Assembly (NCBI GenBank): GCA_008632985.1
Contig: QPGO01000131.1
Location: 1 to 64,000 of the forward strand
Source: Psammoneis japonica
Taxonomy: Eukaryota
DNA length: 64,000 nucleotides
Direction: 5' to 3'
Shown: piece after piece, positions 546 through 31,351 of the stretch
How the letters are laid out: every line of letters begins with the position of its first letter
Position numbering within the stretch: the first letter of the stretch is position 1
The notes under the pieces: model-generated
Told to the model about the DNA's origin: nothing
What the model saw: only the letters and a program-made list of their open reading frames with translations
The model's database searches: none
Position numbers and translations under genes: made by a program

Positions 546-3510
546 ATGGCGTCGTCTTGTCATAAGGAGAATTGGCGTGGACACCAACGTTTGATTCGCC
601 CAGTTGCAACGCAGTTCACCATCTTCCTGGTATTAATCTTTGTACTTGTATCATGCTATGGACTAGTAAACTTACCTTCAAGCGAATTGGTAAATCGACG
701 AAAGTCCCCCGCACTCTGGAGAGATGACTTGACCGTGTCGCACACAAAAGATTTTCCCCACCGCAAAGATCGTCCCATGCCAACTCGACCGCCTGAAATC
801 ATGTCACCCGTGGGCGGTTGGCCTCAGTTGCGCGCAGCAGTTGGGAATGGCGCAGATTCTGTTTATTTGGGGTTGAGCTCTTACAGTGCTCGAGCGAGAG
901 CTGCTAATTTCAATCCTTACGACGGAGAACTTCAGGAAGCGGTCGAGTTTGCCCATAGCGCTGGTGTCAAGGTGTACGTAGCACTCAACACTTTGGTATT
1001 TGATCACGAGCTCAAGAGTAGAGTCTTTGATTCACGCTGCAAATGACGCCGGTGTTGACGCTCTCATTATTCAAGACACGGGTATTGCCAGACTTGTTCG
1101 AGAAATTGCTCCAGAACTCGAAGTTCACGCTTCAACGCAGCAAACCATAACGTCAGCCGATGGGGCAGCCTTCGCTGCAGAACAATCTGGAGCAACTAGA
1201 GTCGTCTTGGGAAGAGAATTGTCTGTCAAGGAGATTGAGGCGGTGACGGACGAAATGGACATAGATAATGTAGAGGTGGAAGCCTTTGTTCATGGGGCCT
1301 TGTGCGTTTCATACTCTGGCCAGTGCTTTTCAAGCGAGGCATGGGGTGGACGGAGTGCCAATCGTGGGCAATGTGCACAGGCTTGTCGTCTTCCGTATGG
1401 TTTGATTGTAGATGGGGAATTGCGAGACTTGAAAGATATGCAGTATCTCTTGTCTCCTCAGGATCTCTGTGGCCTCGAGCAAGTTCCTGAATTGGTCCGT
1501 GCTGGAGTTTCTTGTCTCAAGATCGAAGGCCGGCTCAAGGATGAAGCTTATGTTGCAGCAACTACAAGAGCTTATCGAAATGCAGTAGATGAGGCTTGGA
1601 AAGAACTGACAAAGGATGATGTGAACAGTATTTCTGAGAGTACTCGTGCAGCCGCGCTCGAATCTGATGAGGTTGTAACAAAGGCAGAACTTGCACAACT
1701 GTTTTCTCGTGGACAAGATAAAGAACACGATGGACTGTCTCCTGGCTTTTTTGAGGGATCGCAACACCAAAGACTTGTTCGTGGGCGATCTCCGAGGCAT
1801 CGTGGTGTGTTTGTAGGCCGAATTGAAGAAGGTTCCTCTCCAAGAAACGGAATTTTTGTGTCTGGTGACGAAAAGACTCTTAGCAGTTTGAAGCGTGGTG
1901 ATGGCCTGGTCATTGATAGAGGTGAAGCAGAAGAGGTTGAGCTGGGAGGACCGATCTTTGATGTTCAACGCTCATCCAATGGCGTCGTGATTCGTTTTGG
2001 AAAGGAAGTCGAAAGGAAATGGAAGAAGACCGACGAAGCTTCAAGAAAGGGAATGGGAAGTCGCACCTCCCTCGTCCCCGTGGGTGCTTTTGTTTGGAAG
2101 ACAAGTGATGCTGAAGTTGATAAGAAGATGCGTCGACTGAGCGAGGCTGCACCGCCTCGAGCACTTGCCACGGTTAGTGTCTCTGGGAAAGACAAGGAAC
2201 CATTGCTTGTCAAAATAACCGACGTTGCGTCAGGACGAATTGGGGTTGGAACATCAGAAGGCGTACTCACACCCGCAAAAAAGGCAGGTTTAGCGGAAAA
2301 GGCAGTAAAGAAAGCTATCGGCACCCTGGGAAACACACGCTGGGCCATTCATGACGATATTGATATTAGTGGGTTGGAGGAAGGGTTGTGGTGCCCGGTT
2401 TCGTGGATAAAGGAAGCTCGTCGCCATGCCATTGAAGATTTAGAGAGAGGCTGTCACTCAGATTTTTCAGTCTCTACAAGAGAAAGGACCGACCCTGAAT
2501 CAAATGCTTACCTTCGACTGATTGGTGATGCAATAATCCCAGACGACCGAATGGCATCAGAAACACAGGTTTCCGTACTGGCTCGCACTTTCGAGCAAGT
2601 CAACGCTGTATGTTCCATGGTTGAACATGGTGATTCAGTCGATGAAATCATCGTTGATTTTCTAGAGATTGAGGGAATGAGAGAAGCAGTTGACAGAATC
2701 CGAAGAGCTGGTATCAAGGTTGTAGTGGCTAGTCCAAGAATAATCAAACCTGGCGAAGAAGGAATTTGGCGCACTTTACTTCGCCTTGAACCAGATGGAT
2801 TGCTAGTCCGGTCAGCTGGATTGCTCCACAGAATGGTCAAACTTGGTGGTGCTGGTGCATCAGTCGACGTCGGTACCGAAACCGACGTTGCCATCCCGGA
2901 GCTTCTTGGAGATTTTTCCCTGAATGTTGCAAACGCTTTGACGGCCTTGGAATTGCTGGACTCTGGGCTATCACGGGTAACGGCGGGATACGATCTTTCT
3001 GCAGAAGCTATTACGGAGCTTGCAAAATCAATGGGTCCGGGTGGGGCTAGACGATTGGAAGTAGTTGCGCATGCACACCTTCCGATATTCCATACCGAAC
3101 ACTGCGTCTTTGCGCGCTTCCTCTCCAACGGGAACTCATACTTGGATTGTGGCCACGCCTGCACCCGCTGCAATGTTCATTTGCGTGATCAGACTGGCTC
3201 AGACAACTTGGTGCTGGCAGATATGGGCTGCCGCAATACAGTCTTCACGGCTCAGGCGCAATCGGGCATCCATAGCATTGGAGAATGGGCAAAGGCTGGC
3301 GTTGGGAGAATACGTATCGAACTTGTCGATGAAGGACCGGCCGATTCCGAACAAATTGTTGGAGGATATCTTTCCGTTCTGTCTGGAAGTGAGCGACCAA
3401 GCGTTGTGTGGGATTCGCTCAAGCTGGTTAGAGACAGCAACGGCCGTGCAGCTGGGGTTTCTTTGGGGTCTTTGCGAAACGGGGTAGAAAGGAGAGCTGG
3501 TGAAATCTAA
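546..3510 (+). CDS. U32 peptidase-family protein (RlhA/TrhP-like RNA hydroxylation family) with a second C-terminal U32-like region; frameshift near 1015
   Basis: ORF 546-1046 (PEIMSPVG...GADSVYLG...ARARAANF...GVKVYVALNTL) continues in ORF 1000-3510 (HASTQ, RVVLGREL, EAFVHGALCVSYSGQCFSS, GRSANRGQCAQACRLPY, LSPQDL, LKIEGRLK). Restoring two G in 'aagagtagag' at about 1014-1023 gives FDHELKEVESLIH. Hydrophobic N-terminus. Confidence 0.85.
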
Positions 3511-15963: not shown

Positions 15964-17307
15964 TTAGAGCGGGGAGTCACCAGCCTTGGTTTGATTGAGG
16001 AGCGCGGTAAGAGAGTCACGATACGCATCACACGCGTGGTCTCCAAGCATTGTCGTTTCCATGTACAATTGACGCATAACCTTCATCCCACCGTGCATGG
16101 CTCGTCCGCCAATGACAGATTTGTGAGCGCAGCTCTCCCATAGCGAGACGACCCGCCCGGGCACAAAAAGCTCGATTTCCTGCAGCTCTTCTTGGTTGTG
16201 CTCGTCTTTATCGATTTCAGCGTCAAGGAAGTCTGTTAGTTCTTCCGGCTCCATCAACAAATGTTCGTCGTACTTCATCAGATCAGCAAAGTAGGTACGA
16301 GCGGCCTTGAAACTGTCTGGGCTAAGGCCTTTTTCGTCGAGCTTGGAATCAATCTTCATGAAGAGTTTGTGCAACATGCGCAGATTCAACAAGGACATGC
16401 GAGGGACACAATCGGTATTGTTCACCACGGATGTAATGTAGGATTGACAATCCATGCTGGCTTGAAACGAGGCACAGGCCGGAGTTGCAAAAGCATAGAC
16501 TTGGAGGTCCAGCTTAGGGAGACGGTCCTTCAGGAAAATACCCAACAGAGATGATACTCCTGCACCCAACGAGTGACCACACACAACCAGCTTGTAATTC
16601 GTCGGAATGAAGAGATTAGTGATCATATGAAGGGTGTCTTCGAGCATCAAGTTTGCTGCATTCCACATTCCTTCGTGACAACGAATGGACGAATCGCACA
16701 GCTCGTGGGGAATGGCCTTACCAATTATATCGGTCAAGACATCACTCACTGTTGAAGTTCCCTTGATGGACAAGACGACCTCTTTGGATTCGTGATGAAC
16801 AGCGATGAAATGGCCGACTCTTCCAGGCTCTGGGAACGTATCGTGGCGAATCAAGAGGTAATCCAAGGGCCGCAACTTGTCACTCAATTCCAAAAGACTG
16901 TCTTCATATGCCCATTTGGCAAAGTTAACGTATTTGCAGAGCTCTTCGAGTTCCTCGACCTTCACTTTTTCACCTTCAGCTTGGAACCTTCTGTCCTTGA
17001 AGTCTGGGTACAGATTATCGATTTCGTTCTCCAAGTGAACCATGCTCATAAAGCTGGCATACAGCTTAAACCATGGCATGTCATCAGGAATTAAGTCTTC
17101 ACTCTTCTCGTAAGACAGTTGAATCATCTCTTTCATCTTGCTCCATATCACCGCGGGCGAGGCCAAATCCTCGGTGCCTTCCTCATCATCTGATCGCCGT
17201 TTCTTGATCCATTTCGGAGATTTCTTCCAAACCTTTCGCAAGATTACAACCGTTGCAATAACAATCACAACGGTTTTTGGTGTCACGGATGCGGAGAGTC
17301 GACTCAT
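15964..17307 (-). CDS. Class-3 lipase (DAG-lipase-like) with N-terminal membrane anchor
   Basis: Intact 447-aa ORF; VVLSIKGTSTVSDVLTD, CHEGM, VCGHSLGAGV (GxSxG), AFATP, VVNNTDCVPR, DHACDAY. Confidence 0.9.
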   Translation of the reverse strand: MSRLSASVTPKTVVIVIATVVILRKVWKKSPKWIKKRRSDDEEGTEDLASPAVIWSKMKEMIQLSYEKSEDLIPDDMPWFKLYASFMSMVHLENEIDNLYPDFKDRRFQAEGEKVKVEELEELCKYVNFAKWAYEDSLLELSDKLRPLDYLLIRHDTFPEPGRVGHFIAVHHESKEVVLSIKGTSTVSDVLTDIIGKAIPHELCDSSIRCHEGMWNAANLMLEDTLHMITNLFIPTNYKLVVCGHSLGAGVSSLLGIFLKDRLPKLDLQVYAFATPACASFQASMDCQSYITSVVNNTDCVPRMSLLNLRMLHKLFMKIDSKLDEKGLSPDSFKAARTYFADLMKYDEHLLMEPEELTDFLDAEIDKDEHNQEELQEIELFVPGRVVSLWESCAHKSVIGGRAMHGGMKVMRQLYMETTMLGDHACDAYRDSLTALLNQTKAGDSPL

Positions 17308-19765: not shown

Positions 19766-20093
19766 GATGTGATCAACAGACACAAGGTTTCAGGCTTATA
19801 GCTTAGAAGGTGGGGAGCGCCAAGGAGTGGTGCTTGTGTGTTGTGGGCAAACGCCATGGTGACAGCGGTGGATTATTTTTTCTGCGATCTCCGGTCTTCG
19901 ATCTTCTCATTCTGTTCTGTTTCCGTTCAGGCTAATGTGCTTTTCCGTCTTCAGCACTTTTCGATTTCGCTCGCTCGCTCGCTCGTTTAAATTTCAAAAA
20001 GAGTTGTACGTTTGTCATTTTCACACAGGGAAAAGCAAAAAAGCAGAAAAGCGCAAGTCAAAGCACACAAAAACAAGAAAACGATTCAGCGCC

Positions 20094-21839
20094 ATGATAC
20101 AGCCGGCTGGGGCCGTCGCACAGAGTGTTGGGAATGGACAAGGAGTAATCGCCTTGTTGGATCTCCCAATCAGGAGCAGTATAAGCCTGAATGGGCATTC
20201 AATAGTTCTCCAACGAGATGATTTTGTTGCTATCGACGAAATACCTTTGCCCTCTTGTGATGGTGGTGGAGATAAAACATCGTGCTTTTACTTGGTCACG
20301 ATTCGTCCGGGGCAGAAAGAGGAGAAGGCTTCATCCATGGGAATAACAACGGGTTTTGTGATTGTAAGAAATGGGTTAACTTTACACAATGGCTATTGCA
20401 TGCTGCTGGCAAGAAGGTTTGATTCGCAAACAGAAGAGGTTTCTTCTCTCCCCCTTGACGACGCGTCCGCATCGAACTTGCTCGAGACCATAGCATCCAA
20501 TCGCATGGAACAGCAGAGAATCGTGTCGTACAATAACATTATGAAGAGCTCAGTACAATCAAATAATTACGATTGGGTACACCAGACCAATTTCGTTTCA
20601 CCAGAGCTGCTAAAGAGCAGAGGGCTTTCATCCGGAGACAAGGTTGTTCCTGGGACATTTGAGATGGACAGTGATACTGAATTGAAATCACCAAAAGAGA
20701 ACAATAACTCAAAGCCACGCGAGGCTACTGTAGTGGATGGAATATCAGTAAACTATCCCCCGGTTCCCGTTTTCTTGGACTCGCATGCTTTGAGAACAAC
20801 TCGGCATGACGGGACCAGACGATACTTGTCGGCACTGGCGCCAAGCGAGAAGACTGCACTCTTTGTCGGCAGCACACCACCCGCCAACCTCGTCTTGGAG
20901 CGTTTGTTAAAGGTCTACTTCAATGACGACTGGAAGAGCATACTGGGAGACCTGCAATTGTCCTTTGTGTTGTTTGTGTACCTGCAGTGTTTGTCTTCGA
21001 TGGAGCATTGGTACGTATCCTGTAGTGACAAGCCTTGTAGATTCAATTTCTGCGGCTTAAAGCTTTACTCATTCGTGCCGTATTCTTCTCTTACGCTGTT
21101 GATAGGAGAGATTTGATAGCCATGCTGTCGTGTGTACAGCTTGATCCTTCGTCAGTCACTGAATGGCAGTTGGCATTGTATGGGGAGCTCCTGGCGTTGT
21201 TGTGTGTTCAAATGTCGTTTATAGAGCAAGACTTATTTGAGGTACGCGCTTAGTATATGGTTGATTTCTCTCGATTAAATGTATGACAAGCTTTGCCTCA
21301 CAGTCCTCCTTCGTTTTTGGTATTCGCTCTGGCAACCATAGGACATTGAATTGTCGGGCGACAACTTCTTCGTGCCCGCATTGCGCCGTTTGATTGATTT
21401 ATGCTCTCGTGTTTCGGACAAGGATGATAAATTGAAAAAGAGTGTTGATGATTTGTCAGTAGCCATATCCAATAAATTTCCAGTCGAGTTGTTACCTGAT
21501 GAGACGCCGTTGTCCGACCCTGACAGTTTGTCAGCATCGAGAAGAATAGACGCGGACACGGAAATGGAGGATGCAGAAGCGTTCTCGGACGACGAGGATG
21601 GGCCAGTCATTGTAGCTAGTGAAGAAGTGGAGGCAGCCATGGCTCGTCCTCAGCCACCAGTTACGAATAAGCTTTTGTATCCTGCAGAACACGTCGAGTC
21701 GTATCCATTGCTTTTTGCATCTCTCGCACCCCGAGAAGATGTCCTCATGGCTTGTGCTCGCATTCTAGACGAAGCTAATGATGTTACGTTGGTACGACAA
21801 GCTGCCGCTTATCTAGAAGAGGTGGAAGCCAATAAGTAA
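20094..21839 (+). CDS. AAR2: AAR2-like U5 snRNP assembly factor; introns about 21011-21105 and 21242-21341
   Basis: LLDLP N-terminus, RRFDSQTEE, ILGDLQLSFVLFVYLQCLSSMEHW, DNFF, DDEDGPVIV; splice sites visible. Confidence 0.7.
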
Positions 21840-21967: not shown

Positions 21968-23146
21968 TTATGGCGCTGCACCAAAAATCTCTTGCTTGGT
22001 CCCCTGGATAGCCTCGTTGGCAAGTTCGCTCGTGGCAAGGTCGACAACTTGACGACACGCTTTTTCAAGCCCCTTGGTAGCTTCGTTGCTTTCCGTGGAC
22101 GCCGCGCTCGAGGTTGTCGATGCCTGTTTGACATACATGGGATTGTTGCCGCCTTTGGCAGCCGCCCCAACCTTGGCAGTGGCAGACGTAGCAGTCGCAC
22201 TCGTGAGCCCCCCATACATGGATCCAGGCTTGCTGCTCGCCCAAGCAGACAAGTCCGTGGTTTTGATTTTGGCAGTGGCCTCGGCTAATCCACTGTTCAA
22301 GTCTTGCTCCTTGCCAGAAGCCGAGCCTCCCAAGGTTCGAATCCACAAGTAATCTTGGGTCAGCTGCTCCATGACCATTCGAGCACTGGCACTCATGTAG
22401 TATTCCATACGCAACTCATAATAACGATTCCAACAAGATCCCCACTTTTCGAGTCGCAGCTGTTCCGACGTAACCACGCTGCCATCGGGACACTCGTTTG
22501 CCACGGGCGACGTGTAATCGGGCGGATAAGCCCGAAAGGCCTTGAGATGAGGAGTCGACTTGGCGAGCGATCGGAGCGGATCCATGACAATGGCAACAAA
22601 AGGATTCCCGTGAGGGTCTTCGGCGCGCTGCCACTGAAGTTGCGTGCTCAAATCCGTTTGGGATAAAAAGCAATGAGAATGCTGTCCGACTTCAAAAGGA
22701 TGAGAGTGGTACCATCCCATGAATTTCTCTTTGCGGCTCTTTTCTAGACACTCGCCCAGCGCAATCATGTGATTGACGACATTCTCGTCATCGGCAATGA
22801 CTCGTGTTTCAAACCCTTCGATTGGTAAAGGAAACGCGTCCGTGACGATGAGCGTTTTGGGAGTGTCTGGATCAGGTCGCCCCAACAGCATACCCATGAC
22901 TTCAATGGGATTTCCGTTTCCCTGCTTGATTCCCTTTTCAACGCCAGAGTGGCAGTGCATCATGATTTTCGTCAGAGCCGACGGAGAGAGCGCGACCTTG
23001 TCAAAGTACTTGGCCTCGTTGTTCCACGGGCAGTTCTTGCGCAATTCGTTCAGCTTGGATTCGTCGAATGTGTACCGGGCATTTGCGACATTTTCTGTCT
23101 GCTGAGGCTGTTCACTAGAGGGACCAGAGACTTCTGGGGCTGACAT
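21968..23146 (-). CDS. CSN5: COP9 signalosome subunit 5 (JAMM/MPN+ deneddylase)
   Basis: Intact 392-aa ORF; EVMGML, DAFPLPIEGFETRV, GWYHSHP...LSQTD JAMM motif, AIVMDPLRS, AFRAYP. Confidence 0.92.
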   Translation of the reverse strand: MSAPEVSGPSSEQPQQTENVANARYTFDESKLNELRKNCPWNNEAKYFDKVALSPSALTKIMMHCHSGVEKGIKQGNGNPIEVMGMLLGRPDPDTPKTLIVTDAFPLPIEGFETRVIADDENVVNHMIALGECLEKSRKEKFMGWYHSHPFEVGQHSHCFLSQTDLSTQLQWQRAEDPHGNPFVAIVMDPLRSLAKSTPHLKAFRAYPPDYTSPVANECPDGSVVTSEQLRLEKWGSCWNRYYELRMEYYMSASARMVMEQLTQDYLWIRTLGGSASGKEQDLNSGLAEATAKIKTTDLSAWASSKPGSMYGGLTSATATSATAKVGAAAKGGNNPMYVKQASTTSSAASTESNEATKGLEKACRQVVDLATSELANEAIQGTKQEIFGAAP

Positions 23147-25675: not shown

Positions 25676-25956
25676 TTTTGAGTGATACAAATCTTGAAAG
25701 GAAGGGAAAAGGAGTAACAGCAGCTCTTATTTTTCTCTTAGCGATGCAATGGGCGCCAGTTTTCGTGTTCCTTCTCGTCAATACCGTTTGTTGTCACTTC
25801 ACCAGATGGTCAATAGCAGAAGCGGGGCGAGGAAAAGATTTGGTGCAAGCTGTAACACTTTAGACGCTATCATATGTTCAACCTAAGATCTATAGATAAT
25901 CATAAATAGCGCTATCAATTTTTGTGTACTGGTCGGCGGCATGTTTCTGTCGATTC

Positions 25957-28900
25957 CACTACATGAGTCAGGGGACACTACAGCCGTAGGCCTGGTACAA
26001 AGCAGAGGCGCGTAGAGAAGTGTACCAGACATCCCGTGGGCCTAGCTCATGACCCATCATCACAAATAAAAACGGCCAGCCACATTATTTTTGCTTTTCA
26101 ACGGACCAACGGTGTTGTCGTTATCAACGACATCACCGTTGTAGTTGTCTCTATTCACAACCGCGAGTGTCTCATTTCTTGGCATGTTACAAAGGAAAGG
26201 TAAGTGAGTGTGCTGCAACGGGCTCTTTAGTTTATGTTGCACTGCTGCAGAACTCAATCTTAGCCTTTGTTTCGTCCCCGATGTTTTCATCCTCCAGAAA
26301 GACTCGCTGCCAATCTTCAGGTGCCTTGTTTTCCACCGCAAGGAAATAGATTGGTGCCCAAGACTTTTTGATGACTTCTTCCTCTGCAATGACCACACAC
26401 TCTCCTGATGGGTCAGTCTCCAACAAGACACCAACTCTTTCCGGCCCTTGCTGTTGAACTCGGGCGGCTCTTTTCTTGGCAGCTTTCCGCATGACCTTCC
26501 GCCTCTTCGATTCAATCTTTTGGACAATGGCTTGGACATCAGGCAAGTGGTTCTCTGTGACTCGACGAGCATGGCAATTGACCCTTTGTGCAGTGTCAAC
26601 CATTGAACTTGTTGCACTGCAGGCATCACTCAGGTGCGGACGGCAGTTCTCAAAGCCCCCTTCGTCACATCGCCCTTGCATTTTAAGCCGTTCACTAGCC
26701 TGAGCTCCATGATGTTCATCGCGATGCATGCCTTGACACACACTGGCCCAGTGTTCTCATTTTTGTCTGGAAACTCTTCTCTCCATGCTTTTGAGTGCGC
26801 CGCAGTCGCTTCCCCCATTTTCAGCAAGTCGCCACCCTCGAGCTTCCGCTGAGTTTTCATTGGCTTTGCTTTGGCAAGCAACGGTGTTGCCACCTTTTTT
26901 GTTTTGTCCATCAACTCAACAATGGCAGCATGCACCTCTGGACTCTCATCCTTGTTGTGTGCATTGCATGTTGCTTCGCAGATCTTGTTCCACACGGACA
27001 GAACCTTGATGCCAGCTGCGTTCGACATGTTGCATCCTCCGAACATGGGATGGCAGGTCGCGTTGCCGCACACTTCAATTGACCTTGTGAAAACATGGTG
27101 TGCCGGTCCTTTCGGCTTGTTGTCGGACTTTTCACATGCATTGACAGCTTCAAGGACAGTTGACGCTCCACGCGTGAGCTTCGTCAAGACTCCGAATTCT
27201 GTTTCTTCGGAATGCTTCTTTTTCTCGGCAACCAAACACTCGAGATTTGCTTCGTGCCTTTGCACTGTGGATTCCAAGGGAGTGTCCTTGGCCCTTTCTG
27301 CAGCTGGTGCTGCCTCCACTGACTTGATGTCTTTGTCACAATCCCGGTTGGCTTTCAGGAGTGCGTTGCAGTCCTCGGAGGGCGTCTTCTTTCTTGCACT
27401 CAGCATTGTTTTTAACATCAAGCACATGCTCTCCCCAAGGTGCTTCCTTCTCAATGTTGGCAAGCCGGTCTCGAATGAGTGGACAGAGATGGTGTGAAAA
27501 CGTGCTCATTGTAAAATGCGCGGGAGAGCTGAGGTCCTTGCTTTGATCTTGAACGAGGAAGGCTTCTTTCGTTTGGCTGGCTGAGGTGAGTCTGTCTGAT
27601 CGATCTTGTGTGGCCGTGTGCTTAAAGTCACCGCCGTTTCGATTTTTTGTGCACGCCTCAAAGTTGGCTGTTGGGGAGTTCTCGCCAGATCTTAGAGGAG
27701 CATCGCAGTGCTTCCATTTCCCTTTCTCTTCTGGTTTCTCATGAACTTCCATCCAGCGAGGAAGATGCTTTGAAAAATCTGCAGCTTGCATCGTACATGT
27801 GGGACACGAGCAAAGCACTGAGGCGGTCCCCATGCCGCTCAAAATGTTTTGCTGCTTCCCATCATGAGATTGAAGAGCAAACATCCCTTGGCTTGACATT
27901 CTTGCACTCGCACCGACCGGAACGATGAGCGGTGCAGGGATTGGGAAGCGTGCAGACATGAGCTTGCAGGAAGGTGAGTGAGATTCATCATGCACTTCAA
28001 CGCCAGTGCACACAATCGCATTGTCGGGGGCATTCGATGGCTTCTCGTTTGCATTGGCAAGGACTGGCTTTGCTGCCAGCTTTCTCACAAGATTGACAGC
28101 AGCTTCTGGTGACGCAGCAACGCTCCCTTCCACAGACAATGTAGCTGGCTTCTCTCGGGGTTGGTGTGCTGGTAGATCTGATGCAACATCTTGAGATCGC
28201 TCAAGCAAGATGTCATCGGACAACACCGATTCCTCTGCACTCTTGTCTTGCAGCTCCACAAGCACAGGGATGCAAATCGGCACCTTGCCATCCTTGTCAA
28301 CAATTTCGATCAGCAGCACGGTCACCTTGTCGTCAAGCAGCAGCTGTGGGAAAGCCTGCAAGGGAAGATCCTTTCGGAATGTGTGCTGAGACGAAGATTC
28401 TCCCAGCATTCGCTGGCCTCTTCCACCACGGCAAGACGGGTTCCAGTCCCAGGTGGGACTTTTTGTGACATTGGGCCCGCAGAATTCTACGTGCGAGCTC
28501 CGTGGTAAAATTGTCAAGCAATGAACACATGAATGATCGCCAACAGAAAAAGAGGCAATTTTGCGAACGCATCTCCTCCTCCACACTTGAAGTGCATTCT
28601 TTACAGCATGCCCGGGTGTGTTCTTTAGACATTAAACAGAAAGCCTTTGGCTTCGCAAAACAGGCAGTGTGGAACAATTTTTTACAATAGAACACGCAGA
28701 AATGTACGTGCGAAACATGCGACGGATGATGAAAAATAATTGTGTCACAGTTCAGCAGTGCGAGGTCCCACCAGAGCTGGAACACGTCGCAAGCACCCCA
28801 CAGTGATGGGCTGTGTTGCCGTCCTTGCGGTTGGCAATGCGGATCAACAATGAAGTGAGATCGCCTCCTTTGTCAATGCCAAAGACTGGCACAATCATGG

Positions 28901-30734
28901 ATTTCAATGCGGAGAAAGATTCAGAGGCTTCGAACTCTCCGGTTTCTATGGCTTTGGCTGTCAGCTTCTCAACCACCAAGCACAAGTCACGTGGAAACCA
29001 CATCACGCACGATTTCTTTTTCGATTCCCTCCTGTCGGTGAACAATGGCATTTTCATGATCCTTCTTGGAATGTCCTCTTTCTTGACGCATTCATTCACC
29101 AGATTACGAGCATTCGGAGGGAAGACGCATGACAGGTGCTCGGGTCGAGAATGCGCGAGAAAAATGTTCAAGCGGTGGAGCGCGTTGCAGCTCATGTGGG
29201 GATCAACACATTGCCGCAATGCAACAATCTCTGGAGGAGCAAATGTGATTTTCTCTTGTTCAACAAGGATGAGCTTTCGTTTCTTTGCAACTTGCTGGAG
29301 CACGGCTGGGCTTTGCTCTGGGCGCTCGTCCAATTGCTTTTCAATGGCGGATGCTTTTCGTTTTGTCACACGCTTCTTCAGATCTTTCATGTCTTCAGGA
29401 ATTTTCTTGCTCTGTTGAAGATTTGAATGCTTGGCAGAGAATCCTCCGCCATTCTTCGTGCACTTCAAAGTGACAATTCCCTCATCCGTGGTGCACTGCT
29501 TCAGAACCGAGAATGCAAGGGTTTGAAGTTCTGTGTCGGGCTTGTGCAATGAATCTTTCAACACCGAATCACAAAATGGCTTGCTTGCTTCTGCCACAAG
29601 TGCGTTTGGATCTGGCTCAACTGGATGAGCAATTTCTGACAAAGTGGCAGCAGCAATGTTGTTCAGATTCGTCAGAGAGGTCGACGACTCCTCTGCGGCA
29701 TCTTCCGATTCCTTTTGATTCTTCAACAGTCGACTGGAAGATTCATGAAGAGAAAAGTTTTCCATCAACAGATCACTTGTCAATTCTAGCATCTCTTCCG
29801 GACTGGTGCTCTTGAGATGCTCCTGAATCTTCTGCTGGAGAGTCGCTCGGGTTGGCGGATGCACTGTTCTTGGTGGGCTTGACCCCACCGTGTCTGGAGA
29901 GATGACTCGAGCGGGAGGGGGGGAGGCACTTTCATGGGAGCCAGTTGAAGGAGGGGAGGACATTGACTCACTGGATGACTTAACAGCCTTTGCTTCAGCA
30001 TTTGCCACTTGGCTCCTTGCTCTAGCTCGAGCATCCCTGTCGTCTCGAATCACTTGCTCGTCTCAGAGGCAAGCAAACGGTTTTCCTTTCTCGGCCGTTG
30101 CTGAAACAACTGTTGCAACAGCGGCATTGTAAAGTGCACTCACTTTGAGCTGCTCATGAAGTTGAGTAATCTTCTTTCCATAAAAACGGCCACATGCATC
30201 GATGAGCGAATCTTGGTCGATGCGCACTGCCTTGGCAAAAAGCAAAGCGCCAGGGATTCTTTCTTTGCTTTTGCTGTTGTGTTTGACCACCCAGCACGAA
30301 CATCCGGGGATGACTCCATCCATGCCACCATTTTTGTTGAATTGGTCAATAAATGCACGTACTCTGGCATGTGCTTCGGTCGGAGAGACCTTTGAAACCT
30401 TCGCTTGACTCTGACGGATGGAGGCAACAACAGCGACGATGTGTGAGAAGATGTGAAAGAAGTTGTGTGAAAAAACAGCATCTAAGGAAGTAAATCGAGC
30501 GGCAATCACTATACCACATGCTCCCAATAGGGTTTAAAAAGACTCTCCAGATGCGATTACCGCTCGATTATCAACATTAACGCCGCCGTGAACGATTTGC
30601 GTGCCATGGTCGATGTCATTTTTTCTCTTGCAAAAAGCACGAGGATTGTGAGGTGGCGGACGAACGCGCCAAAAAATATTTTAGTCGAATTATTCAGCTA
30701 TAAGGTCCCTTCACGTAGGCTGACTCATGTAGTG
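25957..30734 (-). mobile_element. 4.8-kb DNA transposon, Chapaev/Transib (RAG1-like) type, with perfect 15-bp TIRs
   Basis: TIR CACTACATGAGTCAG at 25957-25971 and its reverse complement at 30720-30734; flanks ATTC / ATTT; interior encodes a broken DDE transposase. Confidence 0.85.
26232..30527 (-). pseudogene. Decayed Chapaev/Transib/RAG1-core-like transposase
   Basis: Collinear ORF pieces with VFGIDKGG-x-LLIRIAN (about 28864-28886), HDGKQQNILSGMGTASVLCSCPTC (about 27795-27866), SSPAHFTMS, HPMFGGCNMSN (about 27040), GRCDEGGFEN (about 26650-26670); almost no Tyr codons. Confidence 0.7.
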
Positions 30735-30738
30735 ATTT

Positions 30739-31351
30739 CACCGTCCGCGAATTTTTATGAGTTATGTATATTTATATTAATACAACGGAAATTTTTGTCA
30801 ATGATGTTATGTAGTTTTTAACGGCTATCCGTTTCATTTAGTCTTGTTTGGCGAACAACATAATACTGTTTATAAATTATTTATTCATGTGCCTTTCTAT
30901 GTTTTGAGTCGTGAGGGCTGTTGATGACTTATGATGACTTATGATGACTTATGATTACTTATGATGACTTATGATGACTTTTGATGACTTATGATGACTT
31001 TACTTAGGAAGTCGAGTGTGCGGTTCCCGTGCGAAGGACAGCCAACGGGCTGGTATGTATGTCAGTTTGTCTGTGGACACTGTTGTCTTGATGACTTATG
31101 ATGACTTATGATGACTTTTGATTACTTATGATTACTTATGATTACTTATGATGACTTATGATTAGTTTTAACGAGTTTCCGCGACCAACTCTCCATTGAC
31201 ATTTCACGATTAAAAACATTGGCGAGTTTATTTGGCGAGCACAGAATGTGTCTTATCGCTAAAGCAATATGAACCATCATAACATATATATATATATTTG
31301 TCCATTGGATTCTTATAAATAGCATATAGTAATGAAAATTCGCGGACGGTG
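30739..31351. mobile_element. 613-bp AT-rich MITE-like element with CAC-initiated TIRs
   Basis: CACCGTCCGCGAATTTT at 30739-30755 and exact reverse complement at 31335-31351, imperfect match extending to about 50 bp; no matching TSD seen. Confidence 0.8.
30921..31163. repeat. Two blocks of 10-bp tandem repeat (ATGATGACTT, variants ATGATTACTT/TTGATGACTT) separated by a spacer of about 85 bp
   Basis: About 8 units at 30921-31000 and about 7 units at 31088-31163. Confidence 0.95.

Follow-up and report, generated by a model that had tools for sequence, protein, structure and literature searches.

A complete but inactivated transposon in the diatom Psammoneis japonica, probably of the RAG1/Transib/Chapaev type

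Introduction

RAG1 assembles antibody and T-cell-receptor genes and descends from Transib-type transposases, and the age and the spread of its enzyme architecture are still debated. The subject of the present work is a 4778-bp element (positions 25957-30734) found in a 64,000-nucleotide stretch of DNA from the diatom Psammoneis japonica (contig QPGO01000131.1, positions 1 to 64,000 of the forward strand), the whole of which is referred to here as the window. The element is read, with a probability of roughly 0.85, as a cut-and-paste transposon of the RAG1/Transib/Chapaev type (CMCT clade), complete but inactivated, whose closest named lineage is Chapaev.

The closest described systems have been defined by both their ends and their enzymes. 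In the passages cited here, Majorek et al. (2014, PMC3985635) identify DUF1280 with the Chapaev transposases and group it with RAG1 in one clade, and Kapitonov and Koonin (2015, PMC4411706) subsume Chapaev and Chapaev3, each as a clade, under a wider Transib superfamily. The hallmarks of Chapaev, as given by Zhang et al. (2014, PMC4079192), are target site duplications (TSDs) of 3-4 bp, CAC/GTG termini and the protein motifs C(2)C, LH and H(4)H; moreover, Chapaev transposases are described as carrying a Chapa domain (PMC4411706; preprint 10.64898/2026.01.24.700457). For the CMCT clade, the features listed in PMC12730594 are the motifs C(2)C and H(3-4)H, CA..TG termini and TSDs of 2-5 bp. Finally, the account of mouse RAG1 in PMC4914335 names D708, C727 and C730, together with a second half-site, H937/H942, which has the form H-x4-H.

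Ends and flanks of the element

The element is delimited by the sequence CACTACATGAGTCAG, which stands at 25957-25971 on the plus strand (left terminal inverted repeat, TIR, with a 5'-CAC terminus) and at 30720-30734 on the minus strand (right TIR, ending ...GTG-3') with 0 mismatches. The perfect TIR announced in a preliminary description of this DNA is therefore there, complementary at 15 of 15 positions, and lies beyond chance: 0.12 matches were expected at up to two mismatches, and two or more matches occurred in 0 of 100 shuffles. A repeat search of the window returned the same pair (15 nt, 100% complementary, 4748 nt apart). The termini read 5'-CA...TG-3' (CACTACATG...CATGTAGTG), as in the CMCT clade, and show the CAC/GTG form of Chapaev. 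A TIR-like 11-mer at 22392-22402, with one mismatch, was discarded as being at chance level (1.09 expected).

The TIR also begins exactly with CACTA, which speaks for a rival explanation, namely that this is an ordinary CACTA element of the EnSpm branch with a very divergent transposase, and does not belong on the Chapaev/Transib side. According to PMC12730594, in the part cited, C(2)C, H(3-4)H and CAC..GTG ends are common to EnSpm, and stramenopile repeat annotations, in the excerpts available, list EnSpm/CMC elements. Against this explanation, the 3-bp flanks of the element differ (TTC on the left, ATT on the right) and the second, TNPA-like open reading frame (ORF) is absent from it.

The flanking tetranucleotides are ATTC on the left (25953-25956) and ATTT on the right (30735-30738). 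The near 4-bp duplication claimed previously is present in that three of the four bases are identical, but a 4-bp TSD is not established, since random 4-mer pairs from the window agree at three or more positions in 5.4% of 200,000 draws (a chance level of about 0.05) and a single insertion was inspected; the near-duplication is real but weak evidence. Other flank lengths fit worse, with a mismatched TTC/ATT at 3 bp and an agreement of 3/5 at 5 bp (GATTC/ATTTC). Furthermore, no joint skipping the whole element (empty site) was present among those listed from the source run, and neither a second box within the 15-bp TIR nor a TIR of the heptamer/nonamer type was recognisable.

The transposase gene and its lesions

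A single minus-strand gene fills the element, from about 30533 down to 26235, as delineated by a three-frame reading together with a hidden Markov model (HMM) of the family, which was built from 18 homologs and used to place the gene blocks. Five interruptions break this gene: a TGA stop at 30063-30065, an insertion at 28436-28788, two additional bases at 28382-28384, one additional base at 27395 and a frameshift from 26759 to 26735. Because of these interruptions the motifs are scattered over different reading frames; nevertheless, those enumerated in the preliminary description are all found on the minus strand and in the order given there, the spacing DGK-x8-G-x2-S-x4-CPTC is correct, and PAH occurs twice. 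A further motif, H-x4-H (MHRDEHH), which was missing from that enumeration, precedes the E block.

Upstream of the gene, the segment 30534-30719 is taken from its position to be the non-coding 5' end, with a presumed promoter and leader. The N-terminal coding region (30066-30533, minus strand) is an open frame with an uncertain start codon and no zinc-finger pattern; its 156 codons gave no profile match (hhalign E 0.14 against the family), and it resembles the N-terminus of the homolog P0003 by eye only. The same frame is open on both sides of the in-frame TGA stop, beyond which a coding block (28794-30062, minus strand) comprises the pre-RNase H region and the first Asp, in GIDKGG (28863-28880), and matches HMM positions 12-120 with an independent E-value (i-E) of 1.5e-31 (hhalign 1.5e-20).

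This block is followed by an insertion of 353 bp (28436-28788) resembling a miniature inverted-repeat transposable element (MITE) and flanked by a GCAAG duplication (28431-28435 and 28789-28793). A diverged paralog, about 85% identical, skips the stretch and goes from 28435 directly to 28798, with four other bases between. When the MITE and one GCAAG are removed, the upstream frame joins a short coding piece of 17 codons in a third register (28385-28435, minus strand, LAVVEEASECWENL...), which aligns to HMM positions 106-140, that is, to the family block after the first Asp. Two other readings of this region were rejected. The gap 28436-28793 is not taken as an intron, given that the paralog is without this sequence and that the sequence is repeated in high copy. 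For the MITE, a 3-bp duplication of ACG was abandoned in favour of GCAAG, which needs no indel relative to the paralog; the GCAAG version also matches the family better, with a score of 120.8 (HMM 13-140) versus 116.9 (HMM 13-160) for ACG.

The frame is then shifted by two extra bases (28382-28384), the paralog lacking those at 28382 and 28384. The next coding block (27396-28382, minus strand) carries the second Asp in SHDGKQ (27852-27869), CSCPTC (27795-27812) and SPAHF (27513-27527), and matches HMM positions 135-438 (i-E 1.6e-52; phmmer E-values down to 3.5e-14). At 27395, in an A/G-rich stretch, removal of one extra base joins two frames, and this base is polymorphic in the source reads: one contig (depth about 68) is without it and another (depth about 73) is identical to the window, so that two near-identical versions coexist, alleles or copies, one of them with the local frame intact. 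The depth, variant and copy data used here come from the one public DNA run found to hold the locus, besides which two sister runs, but no RNA run, were listed.

Downstream, the coding block 26759-27394 (minus strand; HMM 435-643, i-E 4.4e-48, hhalign 6.2e-29) contains GPAHHVF (27089-27109), FGGCNMSN (27020-27043) and part of a coiled-coil insertion, and it is separated by a frameshift zone (26736-26758) with a few extra residues relative to the family, on both sides of which the HMM matches lie in different frames, from the C-terminal block (26235-26735, minus strand; HMM 646-807, i-E 8e-25, hhalign 1.2e-16). The latter includes MHRDEHH (26709-26729) and CDEGGFE (26649-26669). KACIAMN had been read as a loss of H-x4-H, which was rejected, as hhalign finds the motif intact in the other frame. 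The last frame ends at 26235, the family C-terminus aligns to 26247, and the remaining 25972-26234 constitute the non-coding 3' end, downstream of the transposase stop.

In addition to these interruptions, the S-E-E-G block of the family reads D-E-G-G in the window, the second Glu being replaced by Gly; this Glu is kept in all 11 homologs that cover the site. Thus, with a stop, a MITE, three frameshifts and Gly at the invariant Glu, the copy is dead and makes no transposase. The element is intergenic and leaves no room for a second gene. In agreement with the preliminary description, no RAG2-like ORF is found, since the transposase gene fills the element and its two longest opposite-strand ORFs (208 and 201 amino acids, aa) have no Kelch or PHD match.

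The region could also be considered a decayed host gene that was never mobile and is by chance flanked by an inverted repeat, and for this may be cited the imperfect TSD and the single copy, no other fragments of the transposase family being present in the rest of the 64-kb window. Such an explanation is highly improbable: the TIR pair far exceeds chance and closely brackets the gene, the protein has the fold and the motifs of a transposase, the gene is full of lesions, and further copies that have diverged to about 85-87% identity, one of them without the MITE, exist in the source run.

Relatives and conserved motifs

The pieces of the window gene from about 29132 to 26247 are each significantly homologous to one family (hmmsearch, hhalign). 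A HMMER scan with the 431-aa ORF against 1.84 billion representatives recovered 14 proteins at E<=1e-3, of which two also passed E<=1e-10, all unnamed or 'hypothetical' and originating from ENA, JGI/IMG or Logan assemblies, on contigs mostly of 1.9-6.7 kb and up to 14 kb. Searches with residues 380-1190 of P0003 and with P0036 gave five and four proteins, respectively, close family members only, with no named or animal bridge sequence among them; these searches added P0034-P0039 to the set, and the 416-aa window ORF had no match in a homolog search at near lengths.

Uninterrupted ORFs of 1190, 1192, 1222, 1347 and 1478 aa are found among the relatives, so the family exists intact somewhere. 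Two loci of relatives were located, both on truncated metagenome contigs without element ends (L001 and L002), and none was found in viral contigs or genome contigs. In L001 (2601 bp) the ORF is split, a 648-aa frame stopping just before H-x4-H and a 158-aa frame continuing; decayed copies are therefore present in environmental assemblies too. The family is a rare, unnamed branch of the RAG1 clan in marine protists.

Five blocks characterize the family: F-G-x-D-[KR]-G; G-F-P-S-x-D-x-K ... C-x-C-x2-C; P-[ML]-H; K-[LFMI]-H-x4-H; and G-R-x-S-E-E-G-F-E-x-x-H. The Asp of the first block is invariant in the 10 homologs covering it, D-x-K, both Cys of C-x2-C and the His of [M/L]H are found in 18 of 18 homologs and in the window, and H-x4-H, like the second Glu, is kept by all 11 homologs covering it. 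The window itself preserves both catalytic Asp, C-x2-C (within CSCPTC) and H-x4-H (within MHRDEHH), and thus the motif pair of the CMCT clade; the order of the Chapaev motifs, C-x2-C, P-[M/L]-H and [L/F/M/I]-H-x4-H, is also respected, as CPTC, PAH and MHRDEHH. The distances from the second Asp to the two Cys are +19 and +22 in window and family alike.

Fold of the enzyme

The evidence on the fold comes from a homolog: P0003 was modelled with AlphaFold2 from a 21-row alignment, with a predicted local distance difference test score (pLDDT) of about 80-95 for residues 321-1100 and low confidence at the N-terminus. Against the PDB, Foldseek gave this model 44 matches at E<=1e-3, every one of them to RAG1 or a RAG-like chain (best 3.1e-8), with HzTransib next in the list (E 1.5e-2). 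Structural alignment with VIA-align placed residues 320-1098 of the model on residues 459-1008 of RAG1 (6XNY_A), with a Z of 21.4 and a root-mean-square deviation of 4.2 A over 468 residues; BbRAGL (Z 19.6) and HzTransib (Z 18.8) also aligned well above the hAT transposase Hermes (Z 7.4) and the best unrelated row, a coiled coil (Z 8.7). The predicted structure thus includes the complete RAG1-type core, that is, the DDBD, pre-RNase H, RNase H, ZnC2, ZnH2 and CTD parts. The check proposed in the preliminary description, comparison of an AlphaFold model with the RAG1 core by Foldseek, accordingly gave RAG1 as best match, the model being that of a homolog.

In the model, strand 433-443 contains D441, strand 639-651 ends shortly before D654, and helix 1047-1063 opens at E1046/1047, a placement which corresponds to the RNase H pattern and hence to a predicted DDE triad. 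Two features are additional to RAG1. The two Asp are separated by a beta-rich insertion at about residues 504-640, and a coiled-coil hairpin some 125 aa long occupies about residues 772-897.

Assignment within the RAG1/Transib/Chapaev clan

The sole Pfam family matched by the relatives is DUF1280 (PF06918), found in eight of the 21 proteins scanned (18 homologs and three window fragments), with a best E of 2e-12. Four of the proteins, P0036, P0030, P0006 and P0037, exceed the curated cut-off of 25 bits, and the matched region extends as far as the first Asp, which it includes. Together with the RAG1 match of the homolog model, this bears out the RAG-related transposase clan proposed in the preliminary description. 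The contrary outcome named there, a better match to EnSpm/CACTA, did not arise: neither Transposase_21 (PF02992) nor DUF1258 was matched at E<=10 in the 21 proteins or in extra scans, and no Pfam RAG1-domain model was matched under the same conditions, so that RAG1 membership is not seen at the sequence level.

Several observations weigh against the proposed reading of the element as a transposon of the CMCT clade with Chapaev as its nearest lineage. The TSD is imperfect and known from a single insertion. The modelled homolog is only 21-34% identical to the window piece, and when the window piece 27396-28382 was folded alone the model was poor (mean pLDDT 59.9), with no Foldseek match at E<=1e-3 and RAG1 chains at ranks 4, 5 and 25 with E 0.3-1.0. 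The proposed equivalence of the catalytic residues with those of RAG1 rests on spacing and on position relative to the secondary structure of the model. At the sequence level, the ORFs of the window had no curated-level Pfam match, DUF1280 included, nor any DUF1280 match at E<=1, so the DUF1280 signature of Chapaev is provided through the homologs only. Likewise, phmmer of three window ORFs against the PDB found no transposase, the 38 PDB matches of the family profile at E<=10 were all coiled-coil-type noise, and a 35-column profile of D-x-K...C-x2-C had 0 PDB matches at E<=10. A Chapa-type zinc finger was not seen in six N-terminal regions of 98-613 aa, which hold 0-2 [C/H]xx[C/H] pairs; no zinc-finger Pfam match was obtained either, the N-terminus of the model being of low confidence, so that a very divergent domain is possible. 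Finally, RAG1 is the best structural match to be expected for any CMCT member. To our knowledge, no structure of a CMC transposase has been solved or is available in the PDB, and because of this the RAG1 match does not discriminate among these lineages, Chapaev, Transib and EnSpm alike.

This last point is also of service to the EnSpm branch, for which, with no structure of its own in the PDB, RAG1 would be the best structural match anyway. The absence of any Transposase_21 or DUF1258 match, set beside DUF1280 in eight of 21 proteins, makes an ordinary CACTA element unlikely. Quite unlikely, as well, is Transib proper, from which RAG1 arose, as opposed to a Chapaev-like lineage. In its favour are the whole-core structural match to RAG1, BbRAGL and HzTransib (Z 18.8-21.4), the CAC termini, the lack of a Chapa domain, a lack shared with Transib as described in preprint 10.64898/2026.01.24.700457 in the part cited, and the presence of arthropod RAG1_RNase_H clusters among the neighbours in the ESM Atlas. 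Opposed to it are the absence of any Pfam RAG1-domain match at E<=10, the 5-bp flanks, which agree at only three of five positions (GATTC versus ATTTC), the 15-bp TIR without a recognisable second box and a Pfam signal, DUF1280, that stands for Chapaev. Since TSD length is described as variable even within Transib (preprint 10.64898/2026.08.26.747230, in the part cited), the TSD alone decides little on this matter.

The element is thus best filed in the CMCT clade nearest to Chapaev, but not as a canonical Chapaev, because the family shows no Chapa-type zinc finger. In the ESM Atlas, which serves as a lead only, the nearest clusters comprise hypothetical proteins of cnidarians, one cluster of DUF1280 and several of RAG1_RNase_H. 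It can tentatively be imagined, although it is doubtful, that the family represents a Chapa-less lineage, sister to animal Chapaev within the RAG1/Transib/CMC clan, which lives in diatoms and other marine protists and is still active, the activity being proposed because intact ORFs of 1190-1478 aa exist.

Proposed mechanism

By analogy with RAG1 and HzTransib, the way in which such an element would move can be outlined. The single gene would once have encoded a DDE transposase of roughly 1300 aa, which would bind the CAC...GTG inverted ends. Its RNase H-fold active site, formed by the Asp of G-x-D-K-G-G, the Asp of D-x-K and the Glu of S-E-E-G, would nick the DNA, and a split zinc site, with C-x2-C beyond the second Asp as one half and H-x4-H ahead of the Glu as the other, would brace that active site. 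The element would be released via hairpins on the flanking DNA, and its reinsertion by a short staggered cut would give rise to a duplication of a few bp. A dead copy with intact ends, such as the present one, could move only if an autonomous relative supplied the enzyme.

The MITE-like insertion and neighbouring sequence

The MITE-like insertion has imperfectly inverted ends (ACGGGTTCCAG... / ...CTGGAACACGT). It is probably present in very many genomic copies, because the summed contig depth over 28310-28831 reaches 6e4-1.3e5, versus about 60-190 on either side; no further copies were found in the rest of the 64-kb window.

Depth is also uneven at the right end of the transposon, the terminal 340 bp or so (30398-30745) reaching 510-660 versus about 90-250 in the rest of the element and about 80 at its left end. 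Deleted derivatives that keep this end, or a repeat spanning into the neighbouring 613-bp element, are possible sources of the excess. This neighbour (30739-31351) starts 4 bp beyond the right end of the main transposon and has a perfect 17-bp inverted repeat with a CAC start (51 nt at 75%), two blocks of a 10-bp tandem repeat with a unit of about TTATGATGAC, differing flanks (ATTT / CTGC) and a depth of about 430, versus a single-copy level of about 60. Possibly it is a non-autonomous element of the CAC type.

The flanking region is ordinary eukaryotic gene space: the neighbouring ORFs at 1000-3510, 15964-17307, 19935-21116 and 21968-23146 match the Pfam families peptidase U32/collagenase, class 3 lipase, AAR2 and JAB/MPN (CSN5-like), respectively. 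The JAB protein has CSN5 families as its nearest ESM Atlas clusters, in which most known members belong to the Bacillariophyta; this is again a lead only, and it agrees with the probable diatom host of the preliminary description.

Significance

An unnamed transposase family, represented in a diatom and in marine environmental assemblies, is thus predicted to possess a full RAG1-type core, split zinc site included. Lanisha is a lineage of mosses. In the literature searched, Repbase and Dfam lying outside its scope, no Chapaev- or Transib-type element was found described from diatoms, and one diatom paper names Transib among its references only. For the rooting of the Chapaev/Transib/RAG1 tree the family provides a data point from outside the animals, and its intact homologs are open to biochemical testing. 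Moreover, current repeat annotations of diatoms likely miss it, because Pfam sees only a partial DUF1280 match. Were the sister-lineage proposal true, the RAG1-type core, together with the split C2/H2 zinc site, would either be older than the animals or have moved horizontally, in the latter case between marine invertebrates, as the cnidarian Atlas neighbours would suggest, and microalgae.

Comparison with known systems

With EnSpm/CACTA and Mirage, the element shares the CACTA start of its TIR, the C(2)C and H(3-4)H motifs and a short candidate TSD; it differs from them in having no Transposase_21/DUF1258 match, unequal 3-bp flanks and a single ORF.

The likeness to RAG1, RAG1-like proteins and Transib (6XNY, 4WWX, 6B40, 6PQX) extends over the whole-core fold and the CAC termini, and also includes the predicted position of Asp, Asp and Glu on RNase H elements, the identical spacing from the second Asp to C-x2-C (+19, +22) and H-x4-H before the Glu. 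In contrast, identity is about 12%, with no RAG1 match at the sequence level or in Pfam, and the distances between the catalytic residues are longer, with 213 residues from Asp to Asp in P0003 versus 108 in RAG1, and about 392 versus 254 from the second Asp to the Glu. Furthermore, a RAG2-like partner gene and a heptamer/nonamer-type TIR are not seen, and at this single insertion the flanks agree at only three of the five positions of a canonical 5-bp TSD.

As regards Chapaev, the closest named lineage, the family departs from it in several respects. No N-terminal Chapa zinc finger or RING is detectable, the host is a diatom, whereas the literature, in the parts available, treats Chapaev chiefly in animals, and the protein, of about 1200-1480 aa, is much longer than the 556 aa given for silkworm Chapaev3 in the cited part of PMC4079192, the model showing the extra beta-rich insertion (about 504-640) and the coiled-coil hairpin of about 125 aa (772-897). 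On the other hand, it shares with Chapaev termini of the form 5'-CAC...GTG-3', a candidate TSD whose short length would fall within 3-4 bp, a DDE core along which C(2)C, [M/L]H and H(4)H follow one another, and a first-Asp region that matches DUF1280 through the homologs; its nearest Atlas clusters, moreover, are cnidarian, a host group rich in Chapaev.

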